Shown here piece by piece: positions 31,079-63,315 of a stretch of DNA of 64,000 nt (its first letter is position 1; each line of letters opens with the position of its first letter). Under the pieces are notes generated by a model. That model was not told the DNA's origin. It did no database searches and saw only the letters and a program-made list of their open reading frames with translations. Source of the DNA: a virus (lineage: Duplodnaviria > Caudoviricetes). The position numbers and the translations under genes were made by a program. The stretch covers positions 11,727 to 75,726 of IMG/VR virus record IMGVR_UViG_3300031760_000033, one strand, 5' to 3'.

Positions 31079-31159
31079 TGGGCCCTCGACTGGACTCGAA
31101 CCAGCGACTTTTACCCACATGGCCGTGAGTAACGGTCTAACCAACTGAACTACGAGGGC
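31079..31159 (-). ncRNA. tRNA-like RNA with extended anticodon arm (8 bp, 6-nt loop)
   Basis: GCCCTCG/CGAGGGC acceptor then CCA; TA-GTTC-AGTTGGTTA-GACC D arm; TTACTCAC-GGCCAT-GTGGGTAA; AAGTC; GCTGG-TTCGAGT-CCAGT. Confidence 0.75.
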
Positions 31160-32623: not shown

Positions 32624-32670
32624 GATGCAAAAGTACGAATAATTTTTGATACACGAACAAAATTTTTCGC
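32624..32670 (-). promoter_or_regulatory. Phage promoter family copy A (TTCGTACTTTTGCATC)
   Basis: -7 box at 32628-32635; 37/47 nt identical to 46305-46351. Confidence 0.8.
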
Positions 32671-34686: not shown

Positions 34687-36831
34687 TTAGAATGGGGCGT
34701 CAGGGTTAGGGTCATGCTTAAATTGCTCTTCGTATGGGTCGGTCAGACCTTGGTTGTCGAAATTGGTATTCGGCATGATGGGTGCCGGCGGTGCATCCGG
34801 GAGTTTGTGATACTCCTCAATGCCTTCTTCCCAATCGTAGTGCATATTCTCGGCACGGCTGTTTTTGAAGCGTTTTGTCTCAGGTTCGTAGTATAGGCCG
34901 ACAATGAAGTTTTCGACTCCATAGTCTCGGTTCTTGGCTACCTCTATGATGTTGTTGTAGCCCTCGAAGATAATCCTTGATGTCTTGTCTTTGCCCCAGA
35001 ACTCCGTGGCCCTCTTCTCAAAGTCATCATTGATTCTGTGCAGCAGCAGGAGGTTCCAGCAGATGTTTGTCAGGTCCGACGTGCCGCTGATACTCTCTTT
35101 ACGGAGTAACTGGAAGTTTGCCTCCTTACGAGGGTGTGCGATAATCAGAATATGCACATGGTACTTCTTGGCAATCTCATCGAGCTTCAACATCAAAGCC
35201 TTCTGCTTTTCGTTCATGGTGCCGACGAGGTAGTCAAGCGACAGAGCCATCAGGTTATCAAGTACAATGAATTTGAGTTTGTACTTGACGATAGCCTCTT
35301 CGACGTCTGCAAGTATCTGTTCACAGTTGTTTCCGTAGTTGTTGTTGTAGATGATGAGGCGCTCGTCTAGCCAATTCTCAATTTTTGGAATTACGCTGTC
35401 TATAGCTTCGTAGGCGTTGTCCCGGCCCTCGACCTTGACGACGTTGTTCTTGCCGGCAGCGGTCTGGCAGAGCCATGCCTTGATACGCTTGGCAGGAAGC
35501 TCACCGCTCCAGAGTGCCGACGGGATGTCTCGCTGGACGGCATTTAGGAGGAGCTGGTTCAGGATTGCCGTCTTACCGCTGGCGTTGATGCCAGAGAGAA
35601 CGGTTGTCTGTTCCTCGAACAGGCCGCCTATAGCTTTATCTAGAGCGTAGATGCCGGTCTTGATGGAAAAGCGGTCGCTATCCCTGACAATCTTGATGTC
35701 GCGGGCCGTGAGCCATTTCTTACCAAGCTCATCGGTCTCGGCCTTAATCTCCACTGGCTCTGGAGCCGGGCGGTACTTTTCATAGTATCGCTGCTTGTAC
35801 TTGAACTCGTTGTAGTCTTTCTTGTCGTAGGCGTCAGGTTCAAAGTGTAGTCTAAATTCTTTCCAGTGATATTGTTCGCAATGAGCATGGAAGCACTTAA
35901 ATTCGATGGCCCCATTGTCATACTGAAAAACCATACTATCGGGGTCTGCATGGTCGGCACCGCCAAAGGGACATTCTTTGAGGATGTATCTGGTGCCGGA
36001 TGATGTTCTGACGGTCCTGTATTCAATGCCATGCTTTGCAAAGAATCCAAGCAAGTCGAATTGTTCACCTCCATACTTGTTTTCCCGTGTAGGTTTGGGA
36101 GGTTCCTCCTGAAACAGGGCTGCGACTTTCTCTATATAAATTTTGTCAGTTATCTGAATGGAATCAGGTACTTTGATGATTTTTGCCATTCTCCACGGAC
36201 GTTCCGCTGTATTGGCACCCTTTTTGGCATACGTTCCGTAGAGCTTGCAGATTCTCGATGCGTTATCGACTGATGTGTCAACATGAACAGAGTCGGTGCT
36301 GAACATCATGTCAAGAGCTTTTATAAACCTGTCAACAAGTTTCTCTGACTCCTCATCGTTTTTCAACGCAATCGGGATTGTAACGTGATAGCCGTTTCCA
36401 GAGCGACTAACTATTGGCTCGTAGAACCCCTGCTGAATGAGATAGTCATAGACTCTTCTTGCGACAATGTGTGCATCTTTCAGCTGGGCCTCCGTACTAC
36501 CGGTCCCCGGAACCCTCTCAGGGTCGAAATCGAGAAGGATGAAATCTCTTCCGATGATGTTGTTGTCTTTTGTGGTTTCTTTCGGGAACTTAATCAAGCG
36601 CTCATGCTGCGTTCTATCATAACATTCAGGCGTGATAGAGTTTAGCATGAAGTAGAATTGCAGGGAATCGTTGTTCGACAGTGGCTCAATATCGCGAATG
36701 ATGTTGTTTACGTCGCGGTAATATCCACTGTATGTTTCTTTGTTTTTCCCAAGAACACGAATCTCGCATAGCTTTTGACCGCCATTTTGGAATATCTCCC
36801 ACCACTTGTATATTTGTTCTCTGTCTATCAT
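34687..36831 (-). CDS. Primase-helicase fusion (AEP-type primase, Zn-binding domain, SF4 DnaB-like helicase)
   Basis: ILLDFDP and SRSGNGYH (AEP); CPF...H...C.H.HC; SGINASGKT Walker A; IVLDNL; IIAHPRK; EVAKNR. Confidence 0.88.
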   Translation of the reverse strand: MIDREQIYKWWEIFQNGGQKLCEIRVLGKNKETYSGYYRDVNNIIRDIEPLSNNDSLQFYFMLNSITPECYDRTQHERLIKFPKETTKDNNIIGRDFILLDFDPERVPGTGSTEAQLKDAHIVARRVYDYLIQQGFYEPIVSRSGNGYHVTIPIALKNDEESEKLVDRFIKALDMMFSTDSVHVDTSVDNASRICKLYGTYAKKGANTAERPWRMAKIIKVPDSIQITDKIYIEKVAALFQEEPPKPTRENKYGGEQFDLLGFFAKHGIEYRTVRTSSGTRYILKECPFGGADHADPDSMVFQYDNGAIEFKCFHAHCEQYHWKEFRLHFEPDAYDKKDYNEFKYKQRYYEKYRPAPEPVEIKAETDELGKKWLTARDIKIVRDSDRFSIKTGIYALDKAIGGLFEEQTTVLSGINASGKTAILNQLLLNAVQRDIPSALWSGELPAKRIKAWLCQTAAGKNNVVKVEGRDNAYEAIDSVIPKIENWLDERLIIYNNNYGNNCEQILADVEEAIVKYKLKFIVLDNLMALSLDYLVGTMNEKQKALMLKLDEIAKKYHVHILIIAHPRKEANFQLLRKESISGTSDLTNICWNLLLLHRINDDFEKRATEFWGKDKTSRIIFEGYNNIIEVAKNRDYGVENFIVGLYYEPETKRFKNSRAENMHYDWEEGIEEYHKLPDAPPAPIMPNTNFDNQGLTDPYEEQFKHDPNPDAPF

Positions 36832-36834
36832 GGC

Positions 36835-37626
36835 TTATTGATATTTAATGCCGGCAGGAGAGTAAGACTCATTCTGTGTGGGTGAGAATAAATCCTGTTG
36901 TCCTTTGGCAGGTATGTTTTTGAAGAAATCAGGTTCGACTCCACCCCAGCTTCTTTCAACGGCAGTACGGATAATTTCGTTGGCAGATAAGTTGTGGGTG
37001 GATGATATAGTCTCAATATTTTTCTTTGTGTGATTGAATGCAGTTTGGGTTTGAGAAAGTTTTTTGTTCTTCCGGACCATAATCCAATCATTAGCTACTT
37101 GCTCATCCACCCCCAAGGCAATAAGCTCGTTTTTGAACGAAAACTTTTTTTGAGATACGTCAGTATCTCTTTTTTCTACTTCTTTACTTCTTTGCTTATT
37201 ATATTCTTTGTTTGGGTCAGCCGAGGGGTCAGCAGAGTGGTCAGAGTTGGGGTCATTATAGTGGTCAGTATTGGGGTCAGCGTTAAGGTCATCTATTGGT
37301 TGATATTTGTCATAATTACAGATTGTTATTATATTGTATTTGGGGTATGCGGTTTGAGTAATCATATCGTCCATTTCAAGTAGCCTGAGAAAATTACGGA
37401 CGGTATGGGTGCATACACCCCATTTATCCATAAGGTATTTGTTTGAAGCGAGAAGTTGGCCTCTTTTTATCACAACAATCGTGCTACCAACAAGCACTTT
37501 TTTTTCTTCCCAATTAGCCATGAGCAGCAACCCAAGCCACCATTTCAGCTTTACTGGGTCTTCCCATATCCAGTGGCTCTCTATACCTCGATGGAGTCTC
37601 ATCCATCCTCGTGGTGAATCATACAT
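36835..37626 (-). CDS. Phage replication initiator (lambda O/DnaD-like)
   Basis: GWMRLHRGIESHWIWEDP...KRGQLL.S...L..KW...VRNFLRLLE; internal D-x3 repeats. Confidence 0.85.
   Translation of the reverse strand: MYDSPRGWMRLHRGIESHWIWEDPVKLKWWLGLLLMANWEEKKVLVGSTIVVIKRGQLLASNKYLMDKWGVCTHTVRNFLRLLEMDDMITQTAYPKYNIITICNYDKYQPIDDLNADPNTDHYNDPNSDHSADPSADPNKEYNKQRSKEVEKRDTDVSQKKFSFKNELIALGVDEQVANDWIMVRKNKKLSQTQTAFNHTKKNIETISSTHNLSANEIIRTAVERSWGGVEPDFFKNIPAKGQQDLFSPTQNESYSPAGIKYQ
37215..37291 (+). repeat. Seven GGTCA iteron-like repeats at 12-bp spacing (putative origin)
   Basis: GGTCA at 37215, 37227, 37239, 37251, 37263, 37275 and 37287, next to a T-rich tract. Confidence 0.7.
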
Positions 37627-37633
37627 GGCTTAA

Positions 37634-38233
37634 TTATTTTGAATGAAATTTACGATGGCAGTCATGGCACAAGACAATCAAATCTTCCAGATGGGCCTTC
37701 TCGTTCCCTATATGCTCGTAGGAGTTATGATGTACTTCTAAGTTTGTTTTTGAGCCACATAATTGGCATTTACCTACATTAGATAGCATAATAGCTCGAA
37801 TCTGCTTCCATCTTGGTGATTGAAGATATGCTTGATAATTATCCTTCACTCCTCCTGCATCATCAATAATATGGTTTGCAACACGAAATATCGTCACAGC
37901 ATTATCTATGGCAAGGTAATCAGATTTTGATAACTCATAAAAATCAATCGCGGCATTGTAGTACCTATGATTCTCTTTGAGATTTTTGAGACCTTCCCAA
38001 AAACAATCGAACAAGAAATCAGAATTATTATATCTAATTTCTTCAAATTCAGCTTTTACAAACTCTTCTATAGGTATGACGTTCAACCATAACGAAGATG
38101 GGTCGCCCCCATCGTCGCTTTCAACAAAAAACCAAAGGTCTCTTTCTTTCTTGAAACATAATGATATGTTTCGATAGTCACTATGATAGTATTTGTAAAA
38201 GTGACCAATCTGAGGTTGTTCTAGTGTTTGCAT
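37634..38233 (-). CDS. HNH endonuclease (C-terminal) with unknown N-terminal domain
   Basis: YLQSPRW...CQLCG...LEVHHNSY...DLIVLCHDCHRKFH. Confidence 0.88.
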   Translation of the reverse strand: MQTLEQPQIGHFYKYYHSDYRNISLCFKKERDLWFFVESDDGGDPSSLWLNVIPIEEFVKAEFEEIRYNNSDFLFDCFWEGLKNLKENHRYYNAAIDFYELSKSDYLAIDNAVTIFRVANHIIDDAGGVKDNYQAYLQSPRWKQIRAIMLSNVGKCQLCGSKTNLEVHHNSYEHIGNEKAHLEDLIVLCHDCHRKFHSK

Positions 38234-38254
38234 AGCAGACTCCTTTCAAAAGAA

Positions 38255-38356
38255 TATCGCCCATCATACTCTCGGCTTCCACTCCGATTTCTGATAGGCG
38301 ATAATTCCTATACTTCTCGTTGATAACTAACGGCTAAAGTGGAAGACACCGCAGTT
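38255..38356 (-). ncRNA. Structured intergenic RNA: two hairpins with 8-bp complementary loops and a loop-E-like motif
   Basis: HP1 AACT-GCGG[..CTTCCACT..]CCGT-T-AGTT; HP2 12-bp helix, GAAA/GAGTA internal loop, TCGG/CCGA, loop AGTGGAAG. Confidence 0.7.
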
Positions 38357-38407
38357 AAATTTATTTTCATTGTACCTACATAACGCATGGTTTCATGGTT
38401 TATTGTG

Positions 38408-38614
38408 TCAGGATGAAAAATTTTCTACTTTTTCTCCAATCACCACCCGGACATAACCAAGCTCCATGTTCTCGCAGTGTTCGTAGGTCTTGATGTCTTT
38501 CAGACCCAATGCGAGTGCTTCGAGGTATGCCATGTAGTGAGCACAATCGTCCTTTGTTTCGCAATTTTTGCCGGTGCAGTGGCCGTATTTGTGGTTGAAT
38601 CGTTCTGATGCCAT
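38408..38614 (-). CDS. Small Cys-rich hypothetical protein
   Basis: HCTGKNCETKDDCAHY motif; first gene after the promoter at 38644. Confidence 0.6.
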   Translation of the reverse strand: MASERFNHKYGHCTGKNCETKDDCAHYMAYLEALALGLKDIKTYEHCENMELGYVRVVIGEKVENFSS

Positions 38615-38643
38615 AGCTGTATAATTTTGAGTGAAACGAGTTG

Positions 38644-38655
38644 CAAAAATACGAA
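38644..38655 (-). promoter_or_regulatory. Phage promoter family copy (TTCGTATTTTTGCA) heading the replication operon
   Basis: TATTTTTG -7 box preceded by TTCG, as in the copies at 32624 and 46305. Confidence 0.7.
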
Positions 38656-38659
38656 TAAA

Positions 38660-38872
38660 TCAGGACTTATCAGAATTTTTTTGATGCAGCCTATCGTACC
38701 TCTTCATACGTCGGCAGTTACCGTTGCACCCGGCGTTGATGTGGCAGTTACCGGACCACCCGGAGCGGGCGTAGCAGGTGCCTTCCATACCGTAATGCTT
38801 GCACTTTGTCTTGTATAATTCTCTATCGTTGTCTGGCATATCAGTATTTCTTGTTACCGTGCTTGTACTCAC
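38660..38872 (-). CDS. Small Cys-rich hypothetical protein
   Basis: CKHY..EGTCY...C...C...CRRMKRYD. Confidence 0.6.
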   Translation of the reverse strand: MSTSTVTRNTDMPDNDRELYKTKCKHYGMEGTCYARSGWSGNCHINAGCNGNCRRMKRYDRLHQKNSDKS

Positions 38873-39416
38873 GGAGTTCGTTGTACTTCATTTTGAGTTC
38901 GATGTGCTTGTAGATGTCAATTTTCAGATAGTCGGACCAGTCGAGCATGAACTGAATTGACTTCTTTATGTCGTATGGGGACTGGCCCAACTGATGCCGG
39001 ATGAGAATCCAAGCGTTCTCAATGAACGACTGGTCCCGTTTGAAATAAACACCTCCAAAGCAGTTCAGTGAGCCAAAGTTCATAGATTCTCCGTACAGCT
39101 CATACGCCATGTCGAGCAGACGGATGATGACATCTGCAAACTCATCCTCGATGGAGTTCTTAACGAACAGCTCGAAGCAGAATTTCCAGTGGTCTTTCTT
39201 GCGGTTGATAGGTTGCGGTGTCTGGCTCTCTTTCTCGAACATAGGCATATTGGCCCGTTTGCCCTTGCGGTCGGCTTCCACAGCTTCCGCAACCTCTGTC
39301 ATAACGAGGCCCAGCCAATGCTCAGGTGAATGTTTTTCTTCGTGCCATCCGTGTATGGTGGCAACTTTGTGGATGTGGTGCATCCATTCTTCAATTTGTT
39401 TCTGGTCTATGTACAT
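38841..39416 (-). CDS. MazG-like nucleotide pyrophosphohydrolase
   Basis: EVAEAVEADR and EDEFADVIIRLLD; KYNE.R..KHG.KY; start MYIDQ with TAATG overlap. Confidence 0.8.
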   Translation of the reverse strand: MYIDQKQIEEWMHHIHKVATIHGWHEEKHSPEHWLGLVMTEVAEAVEADRKGKRANMPMFEKESQTPQPINRKKDHWKFCFELFVKNSIEDEFADVIIRLLDMAYELYGESMNFGSLNCFGGVYFKRDQSFIENAWILIRHQLGQSPYDIKKSIQFMLDWSDYLKIDIYKHIELKMKYNELREYKHGNKKY

Positions 39417-40009
39417 TACTTTAGGAATTTGAATGAATAACAGAATACCCACTGATTTGCTTCCCAAGTGCCTTTCCCGGACACTTTATCAATAAGGTGT
39501 GAGAAAGCCTCTCTAGCGGTATCGTAGTGCCTCAGGGCGGGGTAGAATGTATATGCGTAGCACAGGTCAAGTTTTGCATCAAGCACCTCCTCGCCATATA
39601 TACCCTCTTTCAAGGCATCCTCTTCTGAAATTTCGTGCAGACGTTCAATTTTGACGTCAGTAATCCTGACAAAGTGCTGCATATACTCCGGGCAGATGAA
39701 CATGGAGTTATCCCACCCGCCAAGTTCTATTGCAGGATACCAGCCTTTCTTTCTTTTGCCGTTGATAACTTTGCTGCCTTGTAGTAGTACGTCAGGTTCA
39801 AAGATGTTTTTGTACGGCTCCGCAACAGCCACAACATCGTCAATCTTGTATGGGGCGCAGAGGTTGGCCACCTCGGTATAGCCTTTCATATATGCGGCAA
39901 TATCGTCGGGAGTCATGCGGTCTCCGACGAGCCGTCGGGTCATCGTCTTTTTCCCTTCGACGACCGCAGTCCTGAGCTTGTAGTGCTCATTGAAAAGAAA
40001 ACTATTCAT
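39416..40009 (-). CDS. ASCH/PUA domain protein
   Basis: AVVEGKKTMTRR...VRITDVKIERLHEISEEDALKEG...W..N.WVF.Y.F. Confidence 0.8.
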   Translation of the reverse strand: MNSFLFNEHYKLRTAVVEGKKTMTRRLVGDRMTPDDIAAYMKGYTEVANLCAPYKIDDVVAVAEPYKNIFEPDVLLQGSKVINGKRKKGWYPAIELGGWDNSMFICPEYMQHFVRITDVKIERLHEISEEDALKEGIYGEEVLDAKLDLCYAYTFYPALRHYDTAREAFSHLIDKVSGKGTWEANQWVFCYSFKFLK

Positions 40010-46280: not shown

Positions 46281-46304
46281 ATCAGTTGTTTATTGTTTAA
46301 TTTT

Positions 46305-46351
46305 GATGCAAAAGTACGAAGAAAATTTGAATTACGAAAAAAAAAGTTCGC
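46305..46351 (-). promoter_or_regulatory. Phage promoter family copy B
   Basis: -7 box at 46309-46316; 37/47 nt identical to 32624-32670; upstream ATTACGAAA/TTTCGTAAT inverted repeat. Confidence 0.8.
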
Positions 46352-62901: not shown

Positions 62902-63219
62902 TTAATGGTTGTAATTGTCAATACTGCGGTTGCACTCTTCGTAGAACTCCTTGCAGTTGTCGTAACTGTGAATGAGGTCTGTGTACCCCACGGACAACTC
63001 ATCCACATAGTTGATGAGGTCTTTCTTGGTGTACTTTTTGGCATCCTCACCGAGGAACTCTAACAACTCAAAGATGTCGAACCATACCACGAAGTGAAAC
63101 CTCTTGAAGCGTGTCCGTGCATCGTTGATTATCTGGCCAAACACTCCAAAGTAGAAGTTGTGGCACATATCGTTGTTGACCTCGTGGAGTTTCACTCGTT
63201 TTGTTATCTTGATTTCCAT
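62902..63219 (-). CDS. Hypothetical protein
   Basis: Probable start MEIKITK at 63219. Confidence 0.65.
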   Translation of the reverse strand: MEIKITKRVKLHEVNNDMCHNFYFGVFGQIINDARTRFKRFHFVVWFDIFELLEFLGEDAKKYTKKDLINYVDELSVGYTDLIHSYDNCKEFYEECNRSIDNYNH

Positions 63220-63235
63220 GATGTTAATTGTTTGC

Positions 63236-63315
63236 GGTTGAATTAAAGGGGCATTGTCGGCTGCCCCTCGGTCAACCTTAAAATCTATCAATGGTACACC
63301 TGCCGACACAAGTGT
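63236..63315 (-). ncRNA. Second intergenic kissing-loop RNA
   Basis: HP1 ACACTT[GTGTCGGC]AGGTGT; HP2 GGTTGA-CCG-AGGGGCA[GCCGACAA]TGCCCCT-TTAAT-TCAACC; 7-bp loop-loop complement. Confidence 0.65.

Follow-up and report, generated by a model that had tools for sequence, protein, structure and literature searches.

A two-hairpin RNA with polymorphic kissing loops at the entry to a phage replication module

Results

Organization of the locus

The window, that is, the whole stretch of DNA that was analysed, comprises 64,000 nucleotides of a 75.7-kb IMG/VR virus record, from a phage of the rumen/gut type. On its minus strand a gene for a small Cys/His-rich protein is followed by a leader RNA, by the gene for an HNH endonuclease, and by the genes for a replication initiator and a DnaB-type helicase (Table 1). 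The HNH gene uses the Shine-Dalgarno-like sequence that follows H2, and the initiator gene begins 7 nt past the HNH stop codon without a Shine-Dalgarno sequence.

The 68-residue protein has conserved His and Cys positions near its N terminus and no match in Pfam or PHROG. It accompanies the RNA element even beside a different initiator: in the divergent phage L070, a 61-residue homologue with 53% identity to it precedes the element, and the initiator of that phage (328 residues) has no BLASTP similarity to the initiator of the window. The small protein may be a factor for RNA binding or antitermination.

Transcription of the element likely starts at the TATTTTTG box. This box precedes the gene for the 68-residue protein; a single transcript running through that gene into the element would fit, and no promoter-like box fits between the gene and the element. 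The pattern TANNTTTG has 55 sites in the window where 37.8 are expected, and the enrichment of TAnnTTTG in the window supports a Bacteroidota host. A perfect match to the Bacteroidota type, consisting of TTTG, 22 nt and TACTTTTG, lies elsewhere on the minus strand at 32628–32661, and a related repeat at 46289–46351 includes a TACTTTTG box.

Two further transcription starts were considered and rejected. A promoter immediately before H1, with TAAATTCG or TAAATTTA as a degenerate -7 box, does not keep the key TTTG and has no conserved TTTG at -33; moreover, the outer stem of the type-1 H1 can form only if those bases are transcribed. The other candidate was an antisense RNA that would end at the complement of H1. 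The plus strand has a U-rich run at that place, but the types share no conserved promoter box, and a reading of the sequences of the types found no TAnnTTTG-type box on the plus strand that is consistent among them.

Table 1. Coordinates of features at the leader RNA locus, numbered along the window
Feature	Position	Strand	Remarks
-7 promoter box, Bacteroidota-type TATTTTTG	38644..38651	-	About 30 nt before the 68-residue protein gene; putative promoter
68-residue Cys/His-rich protein gene	38408..38614	-	From the ORF list; directly upstream of the element in nearly all relatives
Conserved 5' block	38380..38419	-	UUUUCA (38419–38414), CACAAUAAA (38407–38399), GCGUUAU (38386–38380)
Mini-ORF, candidate leader peptide	38308..38370	-	20 codons; from translation of the sequence
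Hairpin H1	38324..38357	-	10 bp with one bulge in type 1; kissing segment CUUCCACU (38345–38338) in the loop
Linker	38310..38323	-	Conserved motifs ACGA(A/G) and UAUAGG (alignments A4–A6)
Hairpin H2	38255..38309	-	Basal extension, 12-bp lower stem, internal loop, 4-bp apical stem, 8-nt loop
U-rich tail	38243..38254	-	UUCUUUU, then invariant UGAAA
Shine-Dalgarno-like GAAAGGAG	38240..38247	-	Serves whichever gene follows the element first; absent in some types (L045, L052)
HNH endonuclease gene, 199 residues	37634..38233	-	Pfam HNH, E = 1.5e-4; PHROG HNH families
Replication initiator / DnaD-like helicase loader gene, 263 residues	36835..37626	-	PHROG 2514, E = 2.4e-31; PHROG 678 "replication initiation O-like"
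DnaB-type helicase (primase-helicase) gene, 714 residues	34687..36831	-	Pfam AAA_25 and DnaB_C

Architecture of the leader RNA

A preliminary description of this DNA had drawn two hairpins on the minus strand, and its account of them is borne out: H1 occupies 38356–38325, with CUUCCACU in its loop, and H2 occupies 38303–38255, with a lower stem of 12 bp, an internal loop, a 4-bp stem and an 8-nt loop. In the minus-strand sequence the two loops are exact 8-nt complements. The end of H2 lies 21 nt from the HNH start codon (38233), and the Shine-Dalgarno-like sequence is present, both as described. That account did not include the H1 outer stem, the basal extension and U-rich tail with which H2 continues, or a mini-ORF that spans H1. 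Its assignment of the fold to the minus strand also stands: UG and GU pair types occur at four stem positions, and since these become A-C mismatches on the opposite strand, the fold belongs to the sense RNA. RNAfold returns precisely the hairpins H1 and H2 at -31.2 kcal/mol (z = -2.65), a stability equalled by 4 of 200 shuffled sequences.

H1 in types other than type 1 consists of 6 + 5 bp separated by an internal loop. The outer stem is UUCGU/ACGAA in most types and a different 5-bp extension in type 1; this exchange is itself covariation and shows that the 5' flank belongs to the RNA. In H2, the basal extension pairs AGGAAU with AUUCUU, the internal loop sets GAAA (38291–38288) opposite GAGUA (38271–38267), and the apical stem UCGG/CCGA presents the kissing loop AGUGGAAG (38283–38276). 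In the predicted folds of every type, the linker ends in purines (AGGAAU or similar) that pair with the pyrimidine-rich stretch following H2. With its basal extension, H2 is a hairpin of about 22 bp, broken by an asymmetric internal loop and located between cistrons.

The internal loop had been described as a loop-E (bulged-G) module. The part of this claim that concerns sequence holds: the AGUA strand is invariant in all variants, its partner strand is GAA in 13 of the 14 variants (AAA in L070), and the signature is flanked by helices. The likeness to the sarcin-ricin/loop-E motif is therefore one of sequence signature, AGUA opposite GAA within H2, and any loop-E geometry in the fold is read from that signature.

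All 14 variants have a stable H2 (about -25 kcal/mol) with a U-rich tail behind it, a combination that looks like an intrinsic terminator. The type-1 tail, UUCUUUU, is interrupted by a C and can pair with the purine-rich linker, so that H2 could instead be merely a long hairpin. A simple terminator scanner did not list H2, because of the internal loop. The three motifs of the conserved 5' block are invariant down to the divergent members (alignment A6). RNAalifold pairs the UUUUCA of this block with the UGAAAG that follows H2 as a closing helix, which lacks covariation; a hairpin that would present GCGUUAU is weak and shows no covariation either. The core of the leader, from H1 to the U tail, measures about 115 nt, and the whole perhaps about 175 nt if the 5' block is included. 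A hairpin in which the U tail would sequester AAGGAG was set aside as a feature of the type-1 fold only, not conserved.

The preliminary description had presented the element as new, and comparison with Rfam 15 upholds this. At gathering thresholds, tRNA is the sole match in the whole window and no family falls on the element; in the region 37500–39000, searched at E ≤ 10, matches are at chance level and none lies on the element. The tRNA is an 80-nt tRNA-Val on the minus strand at 31080–31159 with anticodon CAC at position 33 (ARAGORN; 47.5 bits in Rfam).

Relatives and covariation

The 90% cluster of the 68-residue protein has 31 members and leads to about 35 encoding loci from many samples; four divergent members (L070, which is an 84-kb phage, and L193, L195 and L196) were added by pattern and protein searches. 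The element is present in more than 40 related loci. Covariance models built from the window alone (R1) and later from 11 variants (R2) find one element in each of these loci, and one copy per genome in three near-complete genomes. Neither model matches the distant helicase relatives L007–L018 (36–41% identity), L197 or the P0099 loci.

Wider searches added little to this set. A blastn search with 36800–39500 against 50,697 phage records gave no match. In IMG/VR, locus searches found one contig with the 68-residue protein, none with the HNH protein, and no further loci with the L070 initiator; exact-pattern scans found one IMG/VR contig and one metagenome contig. The pattern AAATTCGTCGG...ACGAAC retrieves one true member from IMG/VR, L070; in bacterial genomes it gives chance matches alone among the matches listed, and is thus uninformative on prophages.

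Complementary loops in a single sequence are weak evidence of a kiss. A two-hairpin scan finds 26 pairs of hairpins with 7-nt complementary loops in the window, and since shuffled windows average about 18 such pairs, the kiss as seen in one sequence could be chance. The comparative data prove the pairing. Alignment A5 contains 11 distinct variants, which represent about ten independent types, several of them with shared ancestry, and includes the loop-loop helix as a pseudoknot. Standard pairs fill 94.9% of its cells, and 18 of the 35 pairs change on both sides. None of 500 shuffles reaches the observed pairing values, and sliding the partners by 1–3 columns lowers pairing to 35–47%. Alignment A4 gives the same result.

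Changes on both sides affect 3 of 6 pairs in the inner stem of H1, 4 of 12 in the lower stem of H2, and all four in its apical stem. Covariation between the loops, which had been named as the check on the proposed kiss, is present, with compensatory change in 6 of the 8 kissing pairs. In L195 the letters of the lower stem of H2 are wholly different and yet paired. The two-hairpin kissing RNA is therefore real.

Polymorphism of the kissing loops

The loop sequences fall into nine "addresses", each forming 7–8 contiguous Watson-Crick pairs between the loops. Read on the H1 side they are CUUCCACU, CGUCCAC, CUUGCCC, CCUUCAC, UCACUAC, UCUCCACU, GCUCCACU, UGUCUCAC and CAACCAC, and every one has its exact complement in the H2 loop. 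In a matrix of all H1 against all H2 addresses, each row peaks at its cognate pair. Mismatched combinations form 3.9 pairs on average, and a cross-match of 7 is seen only between two closely related types. All eight addresses with an 8-nt H2 loop share one register, in which positions 4–11 of the H1 loop pair with the whole of the H2 loop. In type 9 (L193), where the H2 loop has 10 nt, both sides of the register are displaced by 2 nt.

Variation is sharply confined. In close relatives the 77 nt before H1 hardly vary, and diversity reaches 0.25–0.8 per column from H1 to the end of H2. The H2 hairpins of types 1, 2 and 3 are identical but for one or two loop letters, and H1 changes to match them. 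On the divergent backbone of L070 the type-3 address appears again, and there the H2 stem too has covaried. One mismatched combination was found, in two contigs from two runs (L022:1630–1727 and L023:881–978): a type-2 H1 stands before a type-9-like H2, leaving 4 contiguous pairs, or 6 bp with a bulged A when the loops are paired by eye. L193 supplies the cognate H1 for this H2 loop (8 bp), which makes L022/L023 a natural hybrid. Taken together, the type-3 address on the L070 backbone and the type-9-like H2 behind a type-2 H1 indicate from sequence comparison that address alleles are old, reshuffled and mostly kept matched. The window was also scanned for a second copy of its address that could serve as a target, and one further AGTGGAAG was found, which is the chance level.

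A variable gene slot behind a constant element

In all relatives examined, the element lies upstream of the replication module. What follows it directly varies. The HNH gene is facultative, inserted where element and initiator gene would otherwise adjoin; it stands behind the element in the window, L024 and L039–41, following elements of types t1 and t4, and in most relatives it is missing or exchanged for another gene. Its place is taken by a T5orf172 (GIY-YIG-like) gene in L019 and L038, by a Bro-N/ANT gene in L195, and in L002/L004, L020, L021, L032–34 and L047–50 by unrelated proteins of 186–209 residues (P0002), for which there is no family match. The slot is empty in L025–30, L022/23 and L053–55, where the Shine-Dalgarno sequence is followed directly by the initiator gene, and in L045, L052, L070 and L193, where the initiator has no Shine-Dalgarno sequence or one further on. 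The position directly after the Shine-Dalgarno sequence of the element is a hot spot for inserted genes, and each insert captures that sequence, so that the initiator gene begins a few nt past the stop codon of the insert.

Since the small gene, the element and the entry to the replication module stay while the gene in the slot varies, the HNH gene is a passenger, and the conserved unit is the small gene, the RNA element and the entry to the replication module, in that order. It had been suggested that the RNA is a partner of the HNH protein, following the logic of HEARO and RAGATH RNAs; the persistence of the element where the HNH gene is replaced, or where the slot is empty, contradicts this. 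We conclude that the element is a control element not previously catalogued, and that it does not serve as partner to the HNH nuclease.

A mini-ORF over hairpin H1

The AUG of the mini-ORF (38370) lies 10 nt upstream of the outer stem of H1, and its stop codon UAG (38310–38308) falls within the conserved UAUAGG motif of the linker, at the base of H2. Thirteen of 14 variants keep the frame open between identical start and stop positions, ending 4–5 nt before H2; the spacing between AUG and stop is always 63 nt, and the stop codon is UAG in most variants and UAA in one. The exception among the 14 is L193, which has no in-frame canonical start. The other two frames contain stop codons. The peptide is not conserved where the RNA varies. 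From the open frame we infer that the mini-ORF may be translated; however, the conserved ACGAAC is read in two frames, so that RNA geometry, and not coding, may account for the open frame and the constant spacing.

Discussion

Bacteroidota phages are the dominant phages of the gut and rumen, and to our knowledge almost nothing has been reported on how they control replication. The element described here is a compact RNA device, supported by covariation, that stands exactly at the entry to the replication module and has survived repeated insertion of mobile nuclease genes behind it. Because it heads the replication module, a cis-acting regulator of the replication genes, as the preliminary description had proposed among other roles, is the likeliest function.

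The form of regulation to which we give about half of our weight is a transcription gate: the element would be a cis-acting kissing-loop attenuator of the replication operon. This reading is suggested by the presence, in every variant, of an H2 and tail shaped like an intrinsic terminator. The sequence comparisons show the fold with its kissing pairs, the conservation of the motifs, the position before the replication genes and the independence from HNH; termination at H2, and an effect of the kiss upon it in one direction or the other, we infer. The gate would set how many polymerases continue into the replication genes, and the kissing contact would tune the speed or completeness with which the H2 terminator forms. 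A kiss of 7–8 bp would stack the two hairpins end to end, and by our own rough estimate a linker of 20 nt would hardly span H1, the kiss and a fully zipped H2 with its basal extension. The gate might be toggled by ribosomes, which would have to open H1 while translating the 20 codons of the mini-ORF and the foot of H2 on reaching its stop codon; alternatively, a protein might read the invariant motifs. The kiss and the ribosomes might each promote or relieve termination.

Several observations count against the gate. A terminator placed before essential genes would need a mechanism of read-through. The L022/L023 hybrid persists in two samples despite its poor pairing. A purely cis-acting device has no need of address diversity, and the model leaves that diversity, beside a near-invariant 5' flank, unexplained. 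The diversity points to one of three sources: action in trans between genomes, old alleles that have been reshuffled, or pressure that homing endonucleases nearby exert. It is possible, though less likely than not, that the address of 7–8 nt is a specificity code, the contact between H1 and H2 acting in trans as well and gating the replication operon only of genomes that carry the same address. If so, virulent Bacteroidota phages would possess an RNA-based system of compatibility or kin discrimination, kept polymorphic by selection in a manner comparable to plasmid incompatibility groups or to the heteroimmune phages P1 and P7.

A specific version of such action, which we consider rather unlikely, is an address-coded trans regulator: a short RNA ending at H2, or a processed piece of H1, would kiss the H2 loops of other genome copies with the same address. 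The outcome would be feedback on initiator synthesis, and hence copy control, or the silencing of co-infecting kin, comparable to the action of plasmid incompatibility RNAs, and new addresses would escape the cross-talk. The nine poorly cross-reacting addresses among phages with an almost invariant 5' flank, the matched exchanges of one or two loop letters that alone distinguish the H2 of types 1–3, and the reappearance of the type-3 address on L070 and of a type-9-like H2 behind the type-2 H1 of L022 would all be accommodated. Phage P4, moreover, blocks expression of its replication genes through pairing of complementary leader segments on the same strand (CI RNA, seqA/seqC), which leads to premature termination before those genes (PMC4825925). 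However, no consistent antisense or internal promoter was found, the window holds no target for the address beyond chance, and the diversity could stem from recombined old alleles or from homing-endonuclease pressure. A role in lysogenic immunity is unlikely, since no integrase was found in the three near-complete genomes; no resolvase was found in G000.

Control might alternatively be exerted on translation. In the plasmid rep leaders of the IncI-alpha, IncB and IncL/M groups, a leader-peptide ORF and the pairing of an upstream hairpin loop with a downstream hairpin precede the gene for the replication initiator. The distal partner abuts the rep Shine-Dalgarno sequence and stays hidden until translation of the leader, hairpin I is overlapped by a gene for an antisense RNA, and sequence differences in such control RNAs define incompatibility. 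Control of plasmid rep genes by leader peptide and pseudoknot is reportedly the subject of work by Asano and Mizobuchi in 1998 and Praszkier in 1992, both listed among the references of PMC10724649. Transferred to the phage leader, translation and termination on the mini-ORF would open the foot of H2, and the pairing of the loops would be an activating pseudoknot for ribosome loading. The end of the mini-ORF, so close before H2 in nearly all variants, fits the plasmid logic, as does the replication initiator as the downstream gene in genomes with an empty slot, and in many types the Shine-Dalgarno sequence begins 8 nt past H2. Nevertheless we judge a translational switch of this kind unlikely. 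In predicted folds H2 does not sequester the Shine-Dalgarno sequence or the start codon; several types (L045, L052, L070, L193) have no Shine-Dalgarno sequence or a start 40 or more nt past H2; and the kissing site, an exposed loop, lies about 35 nt before the Shine-Dalgarno sequence rather than adjacent to it. The terminator-like tail of H2 and the want of an evident antisense RNA gene further separate the element from the repY-repZ and repB-repA leaders, which it otherwise resembles in combining a candidate leader ORF and long-range loop pairing before an initiator gene.

Two remaining readings treat the RNA as a substrate or a partner. The intercistronic hairpins of T7 early mRNA separate mRNAs by processing, and H2, as a long intercistronic hairpin with an asymmetric internal loop, might likewise be a site for processing of the RNase III type or a structure that protects a 3' end, and so separate the mRNA for the small protein from the replication mRNA. 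Such a role would agree with the RNase-resistant element that the preliminary description had proposed. It would leave H1, the covarying kiss and the conserved U tail without explanation, and we consider it improbable. A guide or partner RNA for the HNH nuclease, of the HEARO/omega-RNA kind, has adjacency to the HNH gene in this window as its sole support and is scarcely credible. HEARO/omega-RNAs are obligately associated with IscB-type HNH/RuvC proteins, whereas the neighbour here is a free-standing HNH-only protein of 199 residues that is not IscB-like, is missing or replaced in most relatives that keep the element, and sits behind two element types. There is no HEARO match in Rfam, and the match to IS605-orfB-I is at chance level (14.6 bits) and inside the HNH coding region.

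The element belongs to no Rfam family. It shares working principles with the guanidine-IV riboswitch, the IncI-alpha/IncB leaders and the P4 CI system, and lacks a defining feature of the first and the last and probably of the second. The guanidine-IV (mepA motif) riboswitch also consists of two neighbouring hairpins with kissing loops, and its kissing loop competes with completion of the terminator stem, deciding read-through; the lengthened second hairpin and poly-U that form the terminator there resemble H2 and its tail (PMC11611296). The loop nucleotides of the ligand site are conserved in that riboswitch, whereas the kissing letters here vary freely, and the element has in addition an internal loop of the loop-E type, a mini-ORF that covers H1, and a setting before phage replication genes. 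Since the nine addresses make the kissing letters hypervariable, in place of a conserved pocket, a sensor of small molecules at the kiss is unlikely. In P1 and P7, compensating changes in c4 create new specificities. Like P4 CI and P1/P7 c4, the element has complementary segments on the same strand in an operon leader; it differs in that the contact is a loop-loop helix of 7–8 bp within one compact unit, in the absence of a match to the Rfam families C4 and isrK, and in the lack of an integrase in the three near-complete genomes. Address polymorphism and the overlap with the mini-ORF are its unusual features.

Nine orthogonal loop-loop pairs of 7–8 bp on one scaffold constitute a natural experiment on terminator gating and on codes for self and kin, and the kissing pairs are potential orthogonal RNA parts for Bacteroides engineering. 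Even if the element is only a cis attenuator, it is a new RNA family with an uncommon combination of loop-E motif, kissing loop, terminator-like hairpin and mini-ORF.

Two other candidate leaders came to light in the course of this analysis. Locus L197 (700–930) is without the element despite a similar N-terminal domain in its initiator; a TATCTTTG promoter box stands before a gene for a 187-residue protein, and the leader of about 100 nt that follows the box contains a G+C-rich, terminator-like hairpin and may be of a different type. Within the window, a second two-hairpin candidate lies on the minus strand at 63240–63308, in a gap of 108 nt before an ATG at 63218. Its first hairpin has a 7-bp stem and the loop UGUCGG, and its second an 8-bp stem within a 6-bp outer stem; the 8-nt loop of the latter, GCCGACAA, complements the first loop plus its closing C (z = -3.59). 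This candidate has no U tail, and its hairpins are identical in the related genome G001.
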